Below are positions 4,890-16,794 of a stretch of 32,000 nt of DNA, piece by piece. The first letter of the stretch is position 1; each line of letters begins with the position of its first letter. Under the pieces are notes generated by a model. The model saw only the letters and a program-made list of their open reading frames with translations, ran no database searches and was not told the origin of the DNA. This DNA comes from Shewanellaceae bacterium UBA2521 (GTDB lineage: Bacteria > Pseudomonadota > Gammaproteobacteria > Enterobacterales > Shewanellaceae): assembly GCA_002341165.1 (NCBI GenBank), contig DDNL01000090.1, positions 1 through 32,000 of the forward strand. Direction: 5' to 3'. The position numbers and the translations under genes were made by a program.

Positions 4890-5270
4890 AGAAGAGTTGG
4901 AGTGGGCGCATAAGCCGGGTTCTGTCTCTTTATCCAAGATAAAGAGGGTAGTCATTCATCTAGACCACAAATCACTCTGTGGTTCAAGCAATCTACCCGC
5001 TCTCAATGCGGACAACATTAAAGAGAGCCTATTTGATCTTGCTCCGAGTGGAGTTTACCTTGCCACAAACAGTTACCTGCTGTGCGGTGTGCTCTTACCA
5101 CACCCTTTCACCCTTACCTGTATCAATAAAATTGATCATCGGCGGTCTACTCTCTGCTGCACTGGTCGTAAGCTTGCGCTTCCCAGGCGTTACCTGGCAC
5201 TCTGTCCTGTGGAGCCCGGACTTTCCTCCCCGTTGAATACAACGCAGCGACTACCTTGCCCACTCCAGCC
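4890..5270 (-). ncRNA. rnpB: RNase P RNA, bacterial type A
   Basis: The reverse complement reads GGCTGGAGTGGGC...GGGGAGGAAAGTCCGGGCTCCACAGGACAGAGTGCCAGGTAACGCCTGGG...ACGACCAGTGCAGCAGAGAG...CAGGTAAGGGTGAAAGGGTGTGGTAAGAGCACACC...GGTAAACTCCACTCGGAGCAAG...CTAGATGAATGACTAC...ACAGAACCCGGCTTATGCGCCCACTCCAAC. This matches the universally conserved RNase P RNA blocks as I remember them from E. coli M1 RNA. P1 pairing is GGAGTGGGC/GCCCACTCC. A TATAAT box on the - strand lies at 5275-5280, just upstream. The ends are approximate to within about 5 nt. Confidence 0.95.
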
Positions 5271-11202: not shown

Positions 11203-12411
11203 CTAATTCATATATGAATCGCCATAATACTTAGATTTTTGATCTTGCCACTCAAGCGTATGTCGCAGCTCAAGAATAGCAATATTTAATTCTTCTAATC
11301 GATCAAACTTTTTGGATACAACAAAGCCAAAATTCTGCCTAAAGAACTGAAAAGGTAAAATAACAAAGTTTTCATAATTACCTTTTCTTTGTTCTTTTTT
11401 CAAACTAAATCGGTTCACCGCATCATCATTGATCATCGCATCAATCACACCAATATCCATAGCATAAAACTTCTCAGATACAGAGTCATAGCCAATATAA
11501 GAAATCCCTTTTTCTCGAGCATAAGCTTCATGGGTTGTACCACTTTGAACACCAACTCTATAATTGATTAAATCACCCACCCCTGAAATCGAACTACTTT
11601 GAACACCAAGCGTAAAGTAACTGGCTAATAAAGCCGTGATACCTGCTAAAAATAAAGTACTAAATACTGCGAGGAACACAGCTAAGACACGACCTGTTAA
11701 GGTTTTAAACTCATAATAATTAAATGGCCCTTTTGTAATAAATAGCAAGCCTAAAATAAAAGCCTCAATAGCTCGCTTGAAATAACCCAGTTTATCCATA
11801 GCATAAATTTTGTCATTTATATTATGCTCTAAAAAATAAAAAACTATAGATACTGTAATTGCTAAAAAGAACAATAAAGAAATAATTCCTGTAAATCGAC
11901 TCGATTGAAATAAAGATTTAAATTGTTCCCAAGCATTTGATCTTCTTGTGACAATAGATACGTAGGTTTCAAAGTAAGAGTGAGTAAAGCTTGCTCTTTT
12001 GAAACGCTCAGAGGTAATAGTGGTACAAGATAAGCCAATATCAAGCTCATTCTCCATGACATTTTCTAGATGCTCTTTCCAAGTCACGCGATGAAGCTCA
12101 TACTCAAGCCCTAACTGAGCGGCGACTTTGTCCCAAAGATAAACAGCTAAACCCGTTGTTGTGCCATCTTCGTTAAAAAAAACGAAAGGTTCACACTCAG
12201 CAGCTCCAACTTGAATCGCTCCTGATTTCTCTTTTTTTAAATCTTTTTGTCTTGCTTCCTCTTGTTGTTCTAATTTACGAAGCGCTTCATAATCAACCTG
12301 ATTAAACTCTTCCTCTTGCGCAAAGGATAAAGAAATACTGGCGGTAACAAAGCCTACCCAAAAGCAACATTTAAGGATATGTTTAGTAAAAGATATATAT
12401 TTGGCTTTCAT
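11203..12411 (-). CDS. Periplasmic amino-acid-binding (SBP family 3-like) domain split by a two-TM pore: GluR0/iGluR-like ligand-gated channel, paralog A
   Basis: 402 aa. Order of parts: signal peptide; lobe-1 segment (VGAAECEPFVF...GLAVYLW...TTITSERFKRASFTHSYF); TM1 (IISLLFFLAITVSIVFYFL); pore helix and loop (AIEAFILGLLFITKGPFNYYEF); inner helix (TLTGRVLAVFLAVFSTLFLAGITALLASYF, closely resembling KcsA TLWGRCVAVVVMVAGITSFGLVTAALATWF); lobe-2 segment (VGVQSGTTHEAY...GVIDAMINDDAV). No further TM segment follows. Confidence 0.7.
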   Translation of the reverse strand: MKAKYISFTKHILKCCFWVGFVTASISLSFAQEEEFNQVDYEALRKLEQQEEARQKDLKKEKSGAIQVGAAECEPFVFFNEDGTTTGLAVYLWDKVAAQLGLEYELHRVTWKEHLENVMENELDIGLSCTTITSERFKRASFTHSYFETYVSIVTRRSNAWEQFKSLFQSSRFTGIISLLFFLAITVSIVFYFLEHNINDKIYAMDKLGYFKRAIEAFILGLLFITKGPFNYYEFKTLTGRVLAVFLAVFSTLFLAGITALLASYFTLGVQSSSISGVGDLINYRVGVQSGTTHEAYAREKGISYIGYDSVSEKFYAMDIGVIDAMINDDAVNRFSLKKEQRKGNYENFVILPFQFFRQNFGFVVSKKFDRLEELNIAILELRHTLEWQDQKSKYYGDSYMN

Positions 12412-12479
12412 AACAAAAGTACCTATAACATTAATTTTTATCTACACAGTAGGCAAAAAACTATTTCAAACAAAAGCAA

Positions 12480-13703
12480 CTAATTTAAATATGCTTCTCC
12501 ATAGTATTTTCTTTTCTGCTCTTCCCACTCAGATGTTTCTCGAATACGCAGTAACTCGACATTAAGTTCATCACGCTTTTTAAAAAACTTAGAGATAACA
12601 ATACCTATGTTTTGTCTTAAAAACTGATGAGGTAAAATCTCTAGGTTCTCAAACTTTCTACTTAACTGCTCTCTAGGTAAGAGATATCGATTGATTGCAT
12701 CATCAGTAATGATTGCATCCACAACTCCTACCTCAACAGCATGATATTGCTCGAGTGTTGATTCATAAGGAATATAAGAAATACCTTTGCTTTTTGCATA
12801 AGCTTCATTAGTCGTACCAGCGTGGACAGCTATTCTGAAATTGGCCAATTCTGAAACGTTACGAATACGATGACTCTGGATACCTGTAATCAAAATACTC
12901 GCCATCAATGCCGTGATACTCGCTAAAAATAATGTACTAAATACCCCTAGCAAAACCGCCAGAACTCGACCTGTTAAAGTTTTAAATTCATAATAGTTAA
13001 AAGGCCCTTTGGTGATAAAGAGTAACCCCAAAATAAAAGCTTCGATAATGCGCTTGAACCAGCCTAGCTTATCCATTGCATAGATTTTATCGTTAATATT
13101 GTGTTCTAAAAAATAGAACACAATAGAAACGGCTATGGACAAACAAAAGAGTAAAAGCACAATACTTGAGAACTGATTAGATTTAAATAAAGCTAATATT
13201 TGCTCCCATGTATCCGATTTCTCTGTGACAATAGAGACATAGGTTTCAAAAAAAGGATAGGAAAAATAAACACTTTGAGCCCGAGAAGCGCTAATTGATG
13301 TACAAGATAAACCAATATCAATTCTACCTTCACCGGCATACTCAAGATGTTCGGGGAATGAAGTGCGCTCAATGGTATATTTCAGGTTAAGATTCTTAGC
13401 AATTTGCTTCCATAAATAAACAGTCAAGCCCGTCACGCTACCATCTTCTTCGTAAAATACAAACGGAGGACACTCTGCAGCACCAACTCTAACTTCATCT
13501 GTATTTCTTTTTTGCTTATGTGACTGTTCTTGCTTGTTAAAAAGCTCCTGATCTGCAACATTGAAATCTGATTCATTCGCATAAGAGACATAAGATAAAA
13601 TAAGGCCAACTGATGCCATCATCAGTACCAAAACTGGTTTTAAGCGCATATAAACTAACACATAACATATATCTTTGTAGCGTCTATCCATCATTTTTTG
13701 CAT
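12480..13703 (-). CDS. GluR0/iGluR-like ligand-gated channel, paralog B
   Basis: 407 aa with the same architecture as paralog A. The pore module is 58/60 identical to A, while the binding lobes are only roughly half identical. The start is uncertain: the ATG at 13649 (MRLKPVLVLMMASVG...) would give a cleaner signal peptide. The 68-bp gap to paralog A has no terminator, so the two are probably one operon. Confidence 0.7.
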   Translation of the reverse strand: MQKMMDRRYKDICYVLVYMRLKPVLVLMMASVGLILSYVSYANESDFNVADQELFNKQEQSHKQKRNTDEVRVGAAECPPFVFYEEDGSVTGLTVYLWKQIAKNLNLKYTIERTSFPEHLEYAGEGRIDIGLSCTSISASRAQSVYFSYPFFETYVSIVTEKSDTWEQILALFKSNQFSSIVLLLFCLSIAVSIVFYFLEHNINDKIYAMDKLGWFKRIIEAFILGLLFITKGPFNYYEFKTLTGRVLAVLLGVFSTLFLASITALMASILITGIQSHRIRNVSELANFRIAVHAGTTNEAYAKSKGISYIPYESTLEQYHAVEVGVVDAIITDDAINRYLLPREQLSRKFENLEILPHQFLRQNIGIVISKFFKKRDELNVELLRIRETSEWEEQKRKYYGEAYLN

Positions 13704-13875: not shown

Positions 13876-14667
13876 ATGGACTTTAAATTAATCGCACATA
13901 AACTAATGCCATGGGTATTTACAGCTATATTTTTTAGTGGTATTTCTACATTCTTCTTCACTTTCAAACTTTTTCATAATGTCGATAAGCTAGAAATTGC
14001 GTCACAAGAAAAGTTTCAGTCTTACCTAGTAGCCGATGAGTTACGCCAAAGCTCAGATGATCTCACTAGATTAGTAAGAACTTTTGTTATAACAGGTAAT
14101 GATGACTATGAAAAAATGTTCAAAGATGTCATCTCGATTAGAGATGGCATGACTCCTCGACCTCAAAACTACCATCAAATCTATTGGGATTTCGTTATGA
14201 AACATGGTGATAAACCCAAGCCTGATGGGGAACCTATTGCCATACGAGAACGTATGCGTCAGCTCAGCTTTGCAGAGCAAGAACTTAAGTATCTCACTAA
14301 AGCTAAAGACAATTCAGATAAGCTCATCGGAATTGAAATGGATGCGATCAACGCAACGCGTGGCTTATATCGAGACGAAAGCGATAAATATACCCAAAAA
14401 GGACCTAAGAAAATCCAGTGGGCTATTCAAATCTTGCATAATAGACAATATCATAAAGAAAAAGCGAAAATCATGCGCCCGATTGATAACTTTCTATATG
14501 CTGTAGAAAAGCGCACTTCAGATGCCTTCAGCGATAAAATTAAATCAATTAATAATGCCATCATGTTCATTCTTTTTATCAATGCAGGATTATTGATCTT
14601 CTCTGTATTGAGCTTTGTCTCTTTAATACTTGATAAAAAGAACATTAAAAAAGAGCAAGAAAATTAA
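13876..14667 (+). CDS. Two-TM membrane protein with a periplasmic helical sensor-like domain and no cytoplasmic output domain
   Basis: 263 aa. TM1 is about residues 11-33 and TM2 about residues 229-252, leaving only about 11 residues after TM2. The periplasmic segment contains YLVADELRQSSDDLTRLVRTFVITGNDDYEKMF...RDGMTPRPQNYHQIYWDF. From memory this resembles N-terminal sensor modules fused to HK, GGDEF or MCP outputs in other gammaproteobacteria; I have not verified that. Confidence 0.45.
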   Translation: MDFKLIAHKLMPWVFTAIFFSGISTFFFTFKLFHNVDKLEIASQEKFQSYLVADELRQSSDDLTRLVRTFVITGNDDYEKMFKDVISIRDGMTPRPQNYHQIYWDFVMKHGDKPKPDGEPIAIRERMRQLSFAEQELKYLTKAKDNSDKLIGIEMDAINATRGLYRDESDKYTQKGPKKIQWAIQILHNRQYHKEKAKIMRPIDNFLYAVEKRTSDAFSDKIKSINNAIMFILFINAGLLIFSVLSFVSLILDKKNIKKEQEN

Positions 14668-15162: not shown

Positions 15163-16794
15163 CTACACTTGAAACTTACCTGTCATGTTTCTTAAATCTG
15201 TTGCTAAGCTGAGAAGATCACTACTTGATTTATTCAGTCCTTCTGCCTGATCAGATGTTGCTTGAGCAGAACTGTGCACATTTTTGAGTGACTTAATTGT
15301 TTCCTCAATAATATCTTCCTGTCTACTACTTGCTGTAACGATTAACTTATTGCCTTGATTAATCTTTTTCATAGCCAACTCAATGGTATTGAGTACACCA
15401 CTTGCAGCTTGTGCTTTTCCGCCCGTTTCATTGGCATATCTTGAGCTTTCTATAATCGACTCAACCGCTTTACGTGTACCCTGCTGAACTTGCTGTACTG
15501 AATTCCTAATTTCTGTTGTGGAGTTGAGGGTTCGGTTTGCGAGAGTTCTCACCTCATCGGCAACAACAGCAAAGCCTCTTCCTTTCTCTCCTGCACGCGC
15601 CGCTTCAATCGCAGCATTAAGCGCCAACAAGTTTGTTTGATCTGCAATATCATTGATGACACTGATTACAGATTCAATACTCTCTACTTCATCACTTAAA
15701 GTCACAATATCATTGTTAATTTCTGTGACCTTTTGCACAAGAACCTGTGTTGACTCAACAGACTCATTCACCACTTCGTGCCCTATTTCCGCCTCTGACA
15801 ATGCATCACTTGCAATATTGTTTGCATTTTCTGCATGCGCTGAAACTTCTTTTGCACTATCGCAAAGAGAGTTAATAGAAACATCAATGGTATCGAGTTT
15901 GGCCAGCTGATCTTGAATGCCATCAGCCGTATCATTACCAATAGCGACAATATTATCAGATGTTTTTTTAAGATTTTGTGAAGCAACATTGATCTGTGTC
16001 ATGATCAGATGAATCTGCTTGAGCATATCATTTAAATCAACCGACATCACTGAGATTTCATAAGGACAAAGTGTATCGGCTTTAACTGTTAAATTACTGT
16101 TTTGCGATACATCACTTAAAACACCTGATAGGTTTTTGATAGATTTTTGAATCGCTCTATAGTTAAAGACGTTCACAGCAATCATAAAAATAATAACAAG
16201 AATATTCAGTATAACGGTCAAATTTTGTATCGAGCTATACTGATCTGCTATCGTTTTACGCTCAAGAGAAGCTTGGTTCAGTTGAATCTCAACCAGTTCA
16301 GTAATCTTATTACTGATCGGATCAATCGTATCATAAAGCGGACCATCAAAGTCGTTCAGCTGATAAGCAACGCGTCCTTTCATCGTACCCAGCTTACGAA
16401 TTACATCATCAACAGATTTATCTGCTGGAATAAAAAGCGCTTCAGCCTCTTTAGCCAATTCAAGCTCCTCTTCAGGCAGCTCAGACTCTTTATAAATTTT
16501 CCAGTTTTTCGCAATATGACCTTTAGCAAACTCTAAATTCTCTTTTGCTTCTTCTGCCGTTACAATACCTGTGTTCGCTTTGTTCACAGCATCAATAATT
16601 AATACAGCATAATCGTCTGCAATGGTCTTAAGCGTACGTAAAGGCACAACGCTGGAGTCGTAAATAGATACCGCCGAGCTCTCGATACCTTGAAGGGACT
16701 TTAAAGATAAAAAAGCAAACCCTATCAAGAAAAGCAGAGGCACAACAGATGTGATAATTAATCGATATTTAATACTGAGTTGGCTCAAACTCAT
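15163..16794 (-). CDS. Methyl-accepting chemotaxis protein (four-helix-bundle periplasmic sensor, HAMP, MCP signalling domain)
   Basis: 543 aa with TM1 (residues 10-30), a periplasmic domain of about 160 aa, TM2 ([16 protein letters not shown]), then the canonical hairpin-tip sequence [35 protein letters not shown]. Confidence 0.9.

Follow-up and report, generated by a model that had tools for sequence, protein, structure and literature searches.

Among models of ion selectivity, the tetrameric P-loop channels are understood best, and bacterial GluR0 is accepted as the link that joins the potassium channels to the glutamate receptors. GluR0 of Synechocystis PCC 6803 is a plasma-membrane K+ channel with the inverted topology characteristic of the ionotropic glutamate receptors (iGluRs), and its complementation of a laboratory strain of E. 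coli deficient in K+ uptake has been assayed (PMC13099474). Prokaryotic iGluR homologues with unrecognised P regions have been placed in 'Group 2', and the arginine/aspartate pair associated with the ligand was reported to be conserved (Ger et al., 2010; PMC2950845). Group 2 is heterogeneous, including proteins from Nostoc, Magnetospirillum, and others, with identical residues at 2 of 120 channel positions, and its members include YP_204476.1 of Vibrio fischeri ES114 (366 aa) and YP_132561.1 of P. profundum SS9 (372 aa) (PMC2950845). For the eukaryotic receptors, PMC3753602, citing Burnashev (1996), describes homomeric GluK2(R), with an arginine at the pore-loop apex, as a conducting channel permeable to chloride and to monovalent cations.

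This article describes two genes, here called A and B, that encode further members of the kind listed in 2010. Searches of the literature for the T-K-G-P-F-N-Y motif carried by their products, or for the 'glutamate-gated potassium channel' of Vibrio, found no reports, and no functional work on the clade was found.

Gene Layout and Domain Architecture

The window, that is, the whole 32,000-nucleotide stretch of contig DDNL01000090.1 of Shewanellaceae bacterium UBA2521 that was analyzed, contains A and B as tandem minus-strand genes, each encoding a periplasmic amino-acid-binding clamshell that is interrupted by an M1/pore-loop/M2 module (Table 1). Gene B probably starts at an internal methionine at about 13649 (MRLKP...), judged by its position ahead of a signal-like hydrophobic stretch. 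In A, the signal peptide would place S1, and S2 with it, in the periplasm. The Pfam family SBP_bac_3 spans residues 68-397 of A (1.8e-19) with Lig_chan nested inside, and the pattern in B is the same, SBP_bac_3 being split by Lig_chan; the Lig_chan (PF00060) scores, 26.8 bits in A and 24.9 in B, both lie below the gathering score of 30.8. The AlphaFold2 (AF2) monomer model of A has a mean pLDDT of 81.8, with only moderate values of about 72 in the loop, and it contains two transmembrane helices around a re-entrant pore helix, as does the alignment to K+-filter pores by hhalign. Neither the translation nor the AF2 model has a helix of transmembrane length after residue 267 of A, so that M4 is absent and the protein ends with S2. 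The plan is accordingly that of GluR0, namely a signal peptide followed by S1, M1, P, M2, and S2, with neither M4 nor an amino-terminal domain.

Table 1. Features of genes A and B and of the divergent neighbor, in window coordinates
Feature	Position	Strand	Description or basis
Gene A	11203..12411	minus	402 aa ORF; GluR0-like prokaryotic iGluR homologue: signal peptide, S1, M1, pore loop, M2, S2
A residues 1-31, signal peptide ending ...SLSFA, before QEE	12319..12411	minus	Translation; putative cleavage site by AxA-type rule
A residues 64-160, S1 half of clamshell, with R136, C73, C129	11932..12222	minus	HMMER alignments to solved amino-acid-binding proteins
A residues 172-195, M1 outer helix ending in invariant E195	11827..11898	minus	AF2 helix 171-195
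A residues 210-227, pore helix ending T226-K227	11731..11784	minus	AF2 helix 210-227; hhalign to pore helix of K+-filter relatives
A residues 226-239, filter loop TKGPFNYYEFKTLT in place of TTVGYGDK...	11695..11736	minus	Gapless pairing (MAFFT, hhalign)
A residues 238-267, M2 inner helix with G240-R241 and gate-like ITALLAS	11611..11700	minus	AF2 helix 238-267; aligned to GluN2C YTANLAA
A residues 268-400, S2 half of clamshell with D329 and SGTT	11212..11610	minus	HMMER, alignment, AF2
Gene B	12480..13703	minus	407 aa as longest ORF; paralog of A
B residues 177-272, M1, pore loop, and M2	12888..13175	minus	Comparison with A; TKGPFNY filter at about 12972-13013
Sensor-like neighbor, divergent	13876..14667	plus	263 aa; TM, helical periplasmic sensor-like domain, TM; no output domain

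Several residues of this framework are strongly conserved. R136 in S1 and D329 in S2, the arginine and aspartate for the alpha-carboxylate and alpha-amino groups, respectively, are nearly invariant in the alignment, C73 and C129 of A are invariant throughout the clade, E195 and N199 are invariant even when the K+-filter relatives are included, and T259 and A260 in ITALLAS are invariant across both the K-type and the non-K-type branches.

No intrinsic terminator was found between B and A, and the two genes are assumed to be co-transcribed. An Rfam scan for riboswitches or other RNAs near the genes matched RNase P alone, at 4895-5266. The divergent neighbor had no match in Pfam, and what it is homologous to are sensor modules at the N termini of MCPs, histidine kinases, GGDEF proteins, and cyclases. 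A gene of this type divergently adjoins an iGluR-like gene in three further loci (L004, L086, and L087, at 64, 94, and 68% identity, respectively), and this linkage is found only in the sub-lineage to which the window belongs.

The Filter Loop and Its Register

Profile-profile alignment (hhalign) of the M1-P-M2 region with K+-filter relatives gave a probability of 99.3% and an E-value of 3e-20, and it passed through the loop without a gap, setting FITKGPFNY opposite TMTTVGYGD and hence TKGPFNY opposite TTVGYGD. A first-pass annotation of this DNA had located the filter by matching the inner helix to that of KcsA and counting back from the G-R pair. The inner-helix pattern is real and the filter lies where it was placed, but the register was one residue off, since ITKGPFNYYEFK pairs with ATTVGYGDLYPV and not with TTVGYGDLYPVT. 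The annotation's own gapless inner-helix alignment, MAFFT, and hhalign agree that T226 to Y232 of A span the filter; in the KcsA numbering, T226 corresponds to T74, K227 to T75, G228 to V76, P229 to G77, F230 to Y78, N231 to G79, and Y232 to D80.

The same annotation had held that the K+ selectivity signature is missing, and this is borne out. A regular expression for [TS]xG[YF]G-like motifs had no match in the whole of A and B, TVGYG being absent, and profile alignment turned up no K+ signature elsewhere in the two proteins; a TVGYG-like motif revealed by better alignment, which would have overturned the claim, is therefore not present. The Pfam family Ion_trans_2 (PF07885) did not match A or B even at E<=1, whereas the K+-filter relatives P0083-P0086 do match it. 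By Pfam, comparison with solved structures, and hhalign, the P region was unrecognizable as any known selectivity filter.

Relation to Known Channel Families

With GluR0 of Synechocystis PCC 6803 and other Group 1 proteins, A and B share the domain order, the lack of M4 and of an amino-terminal domain, the inverted topology, and a homologous pore (hhalign 99.3%). GluR0-type proteins, however, have TTVGYGD and match Ion_trans_2, whereas A and B have TKGPFNY and do not. The two types also differ in lobe 1, where P-L-T-I-T..R of the GluR0 type stands against C-x-[ST]-I-T..R and a second invariant cysteine in the present clade.

A and B resemble Group 2 in the order S1-M1-P-M2-S2, in the Arg/Asp ligand pair, and in a P region without the K+ signature, and they have the iGluR topology together with the S1 arginine and S2 aspartate by which that group was delimited (PMC2950845). 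The clade contains one member each from Aliivibrio fischeri and P. profundum, of 366 and 371 aa (listed lengths 366 and 372), which, going by species and length, may correspond to the listed proteins; both carry TKGPFNYFEF. The 2010 study, on the other hand, neither describes the T-K-G-P-F-N-Y motif nor separates out the present clade (PMC2950845).

Eukaryotic iGluRs (NMDA, AMPA, and kainate receptors) have in common with A and B the fold of the ligand-binding and transmembrane domains (LBD+TMD), a proline in the pore loop, and a gate resembling TA(N)LAA. Among the top 50 Foldseek matches to the model of A, almost all were NMDA or AMPA receptor chains, covered over LBD+TMD at about 1e-19. HMMER aligned A to GluN2C across M1-P-M3 (E 4e-4), pairing P229 with the pore-loop proline of the NMDA receptor and ITALLAS with YTANLAA; the LBD+TMD fold is thus accompanied by a gate like SYTANLAAF, in which T259 and A260 are the invariant residues. 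In GluK2(R) and GluA2(R), as in A and B, a basic residue is found close to the pore loop's apex. A and B differ from the eukaryotic receptors in lacking M4 and the amino-terminal domain and in falling below the Pfam threshold for Lig_chan, and the loop of A is two residues longer than that of GluN2C. In comparison with edited iGluRs, the basic residue of A and B is genomically fixed and not introduced by editing, and it is off the exact aligned Q/R/N position.

Two-TM K+ channels such as KcsA share the plan of M1, pore helix, loop, and M2, and the G-R pair after the loop. A and B nevertheless lack the signature, are inverted in the membrane, and show no significant direct similarity: when the TMD alone was compared with solved structures, the sole match, which was also the best for a K+ channel, was to the inner helix of KvLm at a non-significant E-value of 3.2. 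The earlier description of the module as a K-channel-like scaffold holds only by way of homology with the K+-filter relatives, while direct comparison of sequence and fold gives the iGluRs (GluN2C at E 4e-4; NMDA and AMPA chains in Foldseek). By its sequence, the pore looks more like that of an iGluR than that of a K+ channel.

Conservation and Distribution of the Clade

The T[K/R]GPF.Y motif occurs in 77 of 86 homologues and in the 80 species loci, although these loci were retrieved partly with a pattern built on the motif itself. T-[K/R]-G-P-F-x-Y hardly varies in about 80 proteins, and likewise in at least 80 species, and its carriers include Photobacterium, Aliivibrio fischeri, Vibrio, Moritella, Ferrimonas, roseobacters, and Desulfobacterales. 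Across 83 clade members, no segment of the protein varies less than the filter loop, whose entropy is 0.41 bits in comparison with about 1.5 in the lobes. Position 227 is restricted to K or R in about 160 sequences, and an acidic residue, E234, is conserved directly after the loop. Position 227 is S or Q in sister lineages within the broader non-canonical clade, a point against universality of the basic residue; two sister types without K227 (SGPIRYY and QGPVKFY, few sequences) have a basic residue four positions further on.

The clade forms a branch separate from the K+-filter GluR0-type proteins (support 100/99), within which the genes of the window belong to a long-branched sub-clade with the tandem duplication. 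An orthologue of B, P0004, is 90% identical and lies on a TARA contig. Clustering of ORFs from the 80 species loci found synteny within genera only, with no cross-genus partner, tandem duplicate, or sensor gene. In Aliivibrio fischeri and Vibrio harveyi, the genes are named either 'ABC transporter substrate-binding protein' or 'glutamate-gated potassium channel', and both names are contradicted by the present evidence.

Divergence of the Paralogs

A and B are 57% identical overall, and this identity is very unevenly distributed. The first-pass annotation had pointed to a stretch of about 60 residues with only two differences, which was found at residues 187-245 of A and 192-250 of B, and to many synonymous differences in the underlying DNA; both DNA strings that it quoted were located, at 11726 and 13003. 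In the pore core, the paralogs are 95% identical in amino acids and 78% in nucleotides, with a pS of 0.88 (saturated) and a dN of 0.036, and the 60-residue core comprises 25 identical codons, 32 synonymously different codons, and 3 non-synonymous ones. The ligand-binding lobes are 51% identical, with a dN of about 0.41-0.43, in keeping with the estimate by eye that roughly half of their residues are shared. The near-identity of the pores is therefore real, but it is no peculiarity of this pair, the loop being near-invariant throughout a clade with 35-40% overall identity.

Gene conversion between the tandem copies, in place of selection, was weighed as the source of this pattern. In the core, A is nearer to B (95%) than to its closer relative P0002 (80%), and N197 and I198 are two apparently derived residues common to A and B. 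Recent conversion is nevertheless excluded because the synonymous sites of the core are saturated and codon identity is at the random level, with 25 identical codons at 57 conserved residues against 26.3 +/- 3.5 expected when codons are drawn independently from the codon usage of the window. The near-zero dS in the pore that would have indicated conversion was sought by domain-wise dN/dS, and saturation was found instead. The differences that set A and B together apart from P0002 are mostly changes specific to P0002, and in distant genera, where the gene is single-copy, this loop is likewise invariant. Conversion as the cause of the near-identity thus has next to no credibility; recent conversion is refuted and ancient conversion is not needed. 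The earlier proposal of an old duplication under strong purifying selection stands, and the window provides a clean case of domain-specific purifying selection following such a tandem duplication.

The incongruence between pore and lobes, in which A is nearer to B in the core and nearer to P0002 in the lobes, was also considered as a sign of conversion or co-evolution. It was set aside, as site polarity is mostly P0002-specific and two shared derived sites are too few for such a claim.

Proposed Function and Alternatives

The reading that we favor, with a probability of about one half, is that A and B supply the subunits of tetrameric channels of the Group 2 branch that are gated by amino acids, are not K+-selective, and have a wider, iGluR-type constriction with a basic ring. 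The architecture, the homology, the missing K+ signature, purifying selection, and invariance throughout the family are shown by the data; tetramer formation, gating, the class of ligand, and all that concerns selectivity are inferred. An amino acid would bind between S1 and S2, its alpha-carboxylate on R136 and its alpha-amino group on D329, and the resulting closure of the clamshell would pull on the M2 helices, the conserved ITALLAS segment acting as the gate. The invariance of T259 and A260 and the conservation of M2 are as expected of a working gate. The T-[K/R]-G-P-F-N-Y loop would most likely form the wider constriction of the iGluR type and not a four-site K+ filter, because proline occupies the site of a filter glycine that needs a left-handed backbone and because GYG is absent. 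The invariant Lys/Arg with which the pore helix ends on its C-terminal side would contribute four positive charges near the axis. Where K227 falls relative to the Q/R/N site varies with the alignment: it is at +2 from the aligned position by HMMER and at -1 to +1 when counted from the G-R motif. With a basic ring close to the Q/R-site region, cation-over-anion discrimination may be lowered, and such a channel would be expected to show low permeation of divalent cations and polyamines and weak cation-over-anion discrimination, as does fully edited GluK2(R), and not K+ selectivity. With the same pore and diverged lobes, the paralogs might form separate homotetramers for different ligands or might co-assemble. 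As the structural model is a monomer of only moderate confidence in the loop, the side chain of K227 could also face lipid or a neighboring subunit instead of the pore.

A possible though distinctly less favored reading is an ordinary non-selective cation channel, comparable to eukaryotic iGluRs, NaK, and CNG channels, in which the Lys/Arg would be structural and off the permeation path and anions would not permeate. The cation-permeable NMDA and AMPA pores are indeed the closest in sequence and fold, the acidic E234 is conserved right behind the loop, and the S or Q at position 227 in sister lineages also fits this reading, whereas the strict K/R in about 160 sequences fits a requirement for charge, and the displacement of the basic residue by four positions in SGPIRYY and QGPVKFY, few as these sequences are, hints that positive loop charge has been selected. 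Structural roles that can be envisaged for the residue are capping of the pore helix or a bridge to E234 or E216 of the neighboring subunit.

A bolder reading, which we consider unlikely, is that the T-[K/R]-G-P-F clade is an amino-acid-gated channel made anion-permeable or anion-preferring by its fixed ring of four basic residues and that, in this lineage, A and B, alike in the pore and diverged in the lobes, join in a heterotetramer for two ligands as GluN1 and GluN2 do, perhaps with the linked sensor protein that lacks an output domain as an auxiliary subunit. If true, this would be an amino-acid-gated chloride pathway on a K-channel/iGluR scaffold in marine bacteria.

It is rather improbable that the proteins are non-conducting receptors, in which the pore module would serve as a scaffold for tetramerization or transduction and the conserved loop would dock a partner, perhaps the adjacent sensor-like protein. 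With the topology of an iGluR, it is the cytoplasmic face that carries the most conserved segments, and the output-less sensor-like gene is divergently linked in four related lineages; however, T259 and A260 of the gate are invariant, M2 is conserved as well, and 80 species carry the channel gene alone, with no cross-genus partner and no nearby sensor gene. The docking surface in such a receptor would be the cytoplasm-facing NYYEFK and the M1-P linker. That the proteins are membrane-tethered substrate-binding proteins of an ABC importer, with the two helices as a mere anchor, is very improbable: source annotations read 'ABC transporter substrate-binding protein' and NCBIfam amino-acid SBP models match both lobes, all far below their cut-offs, but no ABC permease or ATPase gene adjoins in the window or the fetched loci, and the insert is placed precisely where S1 meets S2 in iGluRs, shares homology with pores of the K-channel type and of NMDA receptors, and, unlike an anchor, is the most conserved part of the protein.

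Biological Significance

The clade retains the architecture of GluR0, while the filter has been swapped for an equally strictly conserved loop with a fixed basic residue. It therefore amounts to a natural experiment in the selectivity of a non-K+ filter carried by the GluR0 scaffold, and it is found in tractable species, among them Aliivibrio fischeri and Vibrio harveyi. The clade may represent a bacterial stage toward the wide pore of the eukaryotic iGluRs.

Architecture and Genomic Setting of the Paralogs

The pore segments considered here belong to A and B, tandem ORFs on the minus strand that encode GluR0-like paralogs. In Pfam, each consists of a single SBP_bac_3 domain over ~330 residues that is split by a weak Lig_chan match (26.8 bits in A and 24.9 bits in B, both below the gathering score of 30.8); Ion_trans_2 matched neither, and all NCBIfam matches were to amino-acid-binding proteins and sub-threshold. 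An AlphaFold2 model of A, generated from a 30-sequence alignment (mean pLDDT 81.8), comprises a two-lobed alpha/beta domain with a membrane insert and has no transmembrane helix after M2. The top Foldseek matches of A are NMDA and AMPA receptor chains (~1e-19), covering the ligand-binding and membrane domains. The N-terminus of A, read from the translation, is signal-peptide-like and ends SLSFA/QEE, which places the clamshell in the periplasm, so that the pore loop must dip into the membrane from its cytoplasmic side; iGluRs share this topology, as does GluR0, where it has been demonstrated by experiment (PMC13099474). The B-to-A gap is 68 bp and no terminator-like site was found within it; from this arrangement, the two genes are probably co-transcribed.

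The sensor-like protein encoded beside B has no output domain and no Pfam match, and its homologues are N-terminal sensor modules of MCPs, histidine kinases, GGDEF proteins, and adenylate cyclases. The gene again lies divergently next to an iGluR-like gene in three related metagenomic lineages, across two distinct genomic contexts; this arrangement is absent from 80 other species and Vibrio sp. JC009. No che genes were present among the neighbors scanned with Pfam, and Rfam matched nothing in the window but RNase P RNA.

Features of the window and of related loci (nucleotide positions unless residues are indicated)
Feature	Position	Strand	Remarks
ORF A	11203-12411	-	402 aa
ORF B	12480-13703	-	407 aa, longest frame
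A, M1 helix	residues 171-195		AlphaFold2; followed by 14-residue linker
A, pore helix	residues 210-227		AlphaFold2
A, loop	residues 228-237		AlphaFold2
A, M2 helix	residues 238-267		AlphaFold2
A, C73 codon	~12193-12195	-	lobe 1
A, C129 codon	~12025-12027	-	lobe 1
Sensor-like gene	13876-14667	+	263 aa; TM, helical periplasmic domain, TM; divergent from gene B
Sensor-like homologue, locus L004	6948-7760	-	64% identity
Sensor-like homologue, locus L086	2-652	-	94% identity
Sensor-like homologue, locus L087	1036-1836	+	68% identity
Methyl-accepting chemotaxis protein gene	15163-16794	-	complete (4HB_MCP_1 + MCPsignal); ~500 bp past sensor-like gene
RNase P RNA	4895-5266	-	bacterial class A; Rfam, 330 bits
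A. fischeri orthologue, locus L080	3899-4999		TKGPFNYFEF

Register of the Filter Loop

Four distant relatives of A (P0083-P0086) carry TTVGYGD or TTIGYGD, match Ion_trans_2, and align with A in MAFFT without gaps from the pore helix through M2. Profiles of the M1-P-M2 region, built separately from 93 non-canonical and 135 canonical sequences, align at 99.3% probability (hhalign, E 3e-20) with a gapless loop, in which F-I-T-K-G-P-F-N-Y stands opposite T-M-T-T-V-G-Y-G-D. Both alignments bear out the claim of the first-pass annotation that the K+ signature is absent, but the pairing it wrote out was one residue off its own inner-helix alignment. In KcsA numbering, we take the correspondence to be T226=T74, K227=T75, G228=V76, P229=G77, F230=Y78, N231=G79, and Y232=D80. 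The backbone conformation of a K+ filter, as known from K-channel structures, does not admit a proline where KcsA has G77, and a loop of this sequence cannot be expected to act as one.

The scaffold had also been described as K-channel-like. This holds in that homology with K-channel pores can be traced by way of the GluR0 family; compared directly, however, the pore more closely resembles those of iGluRs. The membrane module alone retrieved nothing significant from the PDB (best, the KvLm inner helix, E 3.2), whereas residues 130-290 of A aligned with GluN2C through M1 at E 4e-4. In the latter alignment, P229 falls on the NMDA pore-loop proline, the loop of A is two residues longer, and ITALLAS stands opposite YTANLAA; T259 and A260 of this motif are invariant in K-type and non-K-type branches alike. 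The result agrees with the placement of Group 2, the prokaryotic homologues without a K+ filter, nearer to the eukaryotic receptors (Ger et al., 2010).

Conservation of the Pore and History of the Duplication

The paralogs are 57% identical overall and ~51% identical in the lobes, yet residues 187-245 of A equal 192-250 of B save for two differences, as originally noted, and both DNA strings quoted as examples of silent divergence are present in the window. By the Nei-Gojobori method, dN is 0.036 in the 60-codon core versus 0.41-0.43 in the two lobes, and synonymous differences have reached saturation in every region (proportion 0.88 in the core), nowhere giving the near-zero dS expected of conversion. 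Core codons divide into 25 identical, 32 synonymously different, and 3 non-synonymous; the 25 identical among 57 conserved residues compare with 26.3 ± 3.5 expected if each copy draws independently from the codon usage of the window, and outside the core the figure is slightly above expectation (88 versus 71.8 ± 5.8). Silent-site identity in the core is thus random, so that at silent sites the pore is no more recent than the remainder of the gene, and gene conversion at any recent date is excluded. Comparing B with P0004, a 90%-identical orthologue from a TARA contig, reduces the saturation: overall dS is 0.31 and omega 0.17, and amino-acid changes are fewest in the core.

Near-identity of the loop, although confirmed, is a property of the family rather than of this pair. 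The pattern G-L-L-F-[IV]-T-[KR]-G-P-F-N-Y-[YF]-E-F occurs in 77 of 86 homologues of A, the remainder being mostly variants (TKGPFAYFH, TKGPFQYFH) along with four K-filter types. Across 83 clade members, the filter loop is the segment of lowest entropy (0.41 bits), compared with 0.74-0.76 bits in the pore helix and M2 and ~1.5 in either lobe.

In the maximum-likelihood tree, A groups with the homologues P0002 and P0003 (97/71) and B with P0004 (100/99), and the common stem is long; the duplication is old on this phylogeny and probably preceded the split from the organism carrying P0002. In the lobes, A is closer to P0002 (62-64%) than to B (51%), whereas in the core the order is reversed (A-B 95%, A-P0002 80%). 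Polarization of sites with 19 outgroups attributes this difference mostly to P0002-specific substitutions, and only N197 and I198 appear to be derived states shared by A and B, which is insufficient for a claim of ancient conversion or heteromer co-evolution. Pocket motifs differ in detail (SCTTITSER versus SCTSISASR; SGTTHEAY versus AGTTNEAY). Co-assembly of A and B is a possibility.

Distribution of the Non-canonical Clade

When 1.84 billion representatives at 50% identity were searched with a profile, the best-scoring full-length relatives were mostly canonical TTVGYGD proteins, and about twenty had non-canonical filters, including FITKGPFNY, FITRGPFNY, FVTSGPIRYY, FVTQGPVKFY, SITQGPPSYW, LITQGTIHY, and FVTSGAFDH. 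The non-canonical clade (100/99) stands apart from the K-filter clade, and the T[KR]GPF group is nested within it (99/95). When one genome per species was scanned, 112 relatives were found, and 80 loci were kept; since the scan relied on the T[KR]GPF-type pattern itself, these numbers carry no measure of how often the motif varies. The sources include Photobacterium (with P. profundum), Aliivibrio fischeri, Moritella, Ferrimonas, Vibrio harveyi, V. splendidus, and V. chagasii, as well as roseobacters (Ruegeria, Pseudooceanicola, Jannaschia) and Desulfobacterales, and all of those named are marine. The gene is single-copy at all 80 loci and has no neighbor conserved across genera.

Among 40 relatives of the genome studied here, just one other carries the gene, which is accessory. 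The host assembly (2.28 Mb in 95 contigs, 96% complete) is small for its family, 23 relatives spanning 3.2-5.5 Mb, and an iGluR-like gene is present in only 1 of 24 same-family genomes. The channel pair is thus an accessory trait retained in a reduced genome.

Ligand, Gating, and Selectivity

R136 (T-I-T-S-E-R) and D329 (N-D-D-A) of A are nearly invariant and align with the alpha-carboxylate arginine and alpha-amino aspartate of solved amino-acid-binding proteins, which makes an amino acid the very probable agonist. Taken with the conserved gate motif, these residues are most economically read as those of a ligand-gated channel. C73 and C129, invariant in the non-canonical clade and replaced by Ala and Pro in the K-filter relatives, occupy pocket-lining positions in alignments to solved binding proteins (the PPF-motif aromatic and the equivalent of the iGluR P-L-T proline) and may be linked at the ligand site by a periplasmic disulfide.

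The most striking feature of the loop is the K/R at the C-terminal end of the pore helix, two residues past the position that HMMER aligns with the Q/R/N site and presumably within one residue of it when counted from the GR motif. To our knowledge, a basic ring at this place occurs, among well-studied pores with this fold, only in the homomers of GluK2(R) and GluA2(R) in their fully edited form. Such homomers still conduct, resist polyamine block, and are permeable to chloride in addition to monovalent cations (PMC3753602). By analogy, the pathway of A and B would be weakly selective, with reduced discrimination of cations over anions, and probably of low conductance. The main rival is a plain non-selective cation channel in which the lysine is structural. 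Two sister types with S or Q at position 227 carry a basic residue four positions on (SGPIRYY, QGPVKFY), and these very few sequences hint that a positive charge in the loop is itself under selection.

Relation to Catalogued Prokaryotic Receptors

Ger et al. (2010; PMC2950845) listed 22 prokaryotic proteins of iGluR topology, 12 of them with a K+ filter (Group 1). Among their Group 2 entries are YP_204476.1 of V. fischeri ES114 (366 aa), which bears the annotation 'glutamate-gated potassium channel', and YP_132561.1 of P. profundum SS9 (372 aa); the clade members fetched from A. fischeri (366 aa) and P. profundum (371 aa) both carry TKGPFNYFEF, and the T[KR]GPF class is almost certainly already within that list. 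Given this motif in the A. fischeri orthologue, which has the same length, that annotation is very probably in error. 'ABC transporter substrate-binding protein' is the name given to many other clade members. No paper mentioning a T[KR]GPF-type loop, and no functional test of such a K-filter-less protein, was found in the literature. Among prokaryotic iGluR homologues, only K-filter GluR0 has been characterized so far, the latest study describing it as a K+ channel of the plasma membrane that acts in volume regulation (PMC13099474). What is new here is a duplicated member of a class catalogued in 2010 and never characterized.
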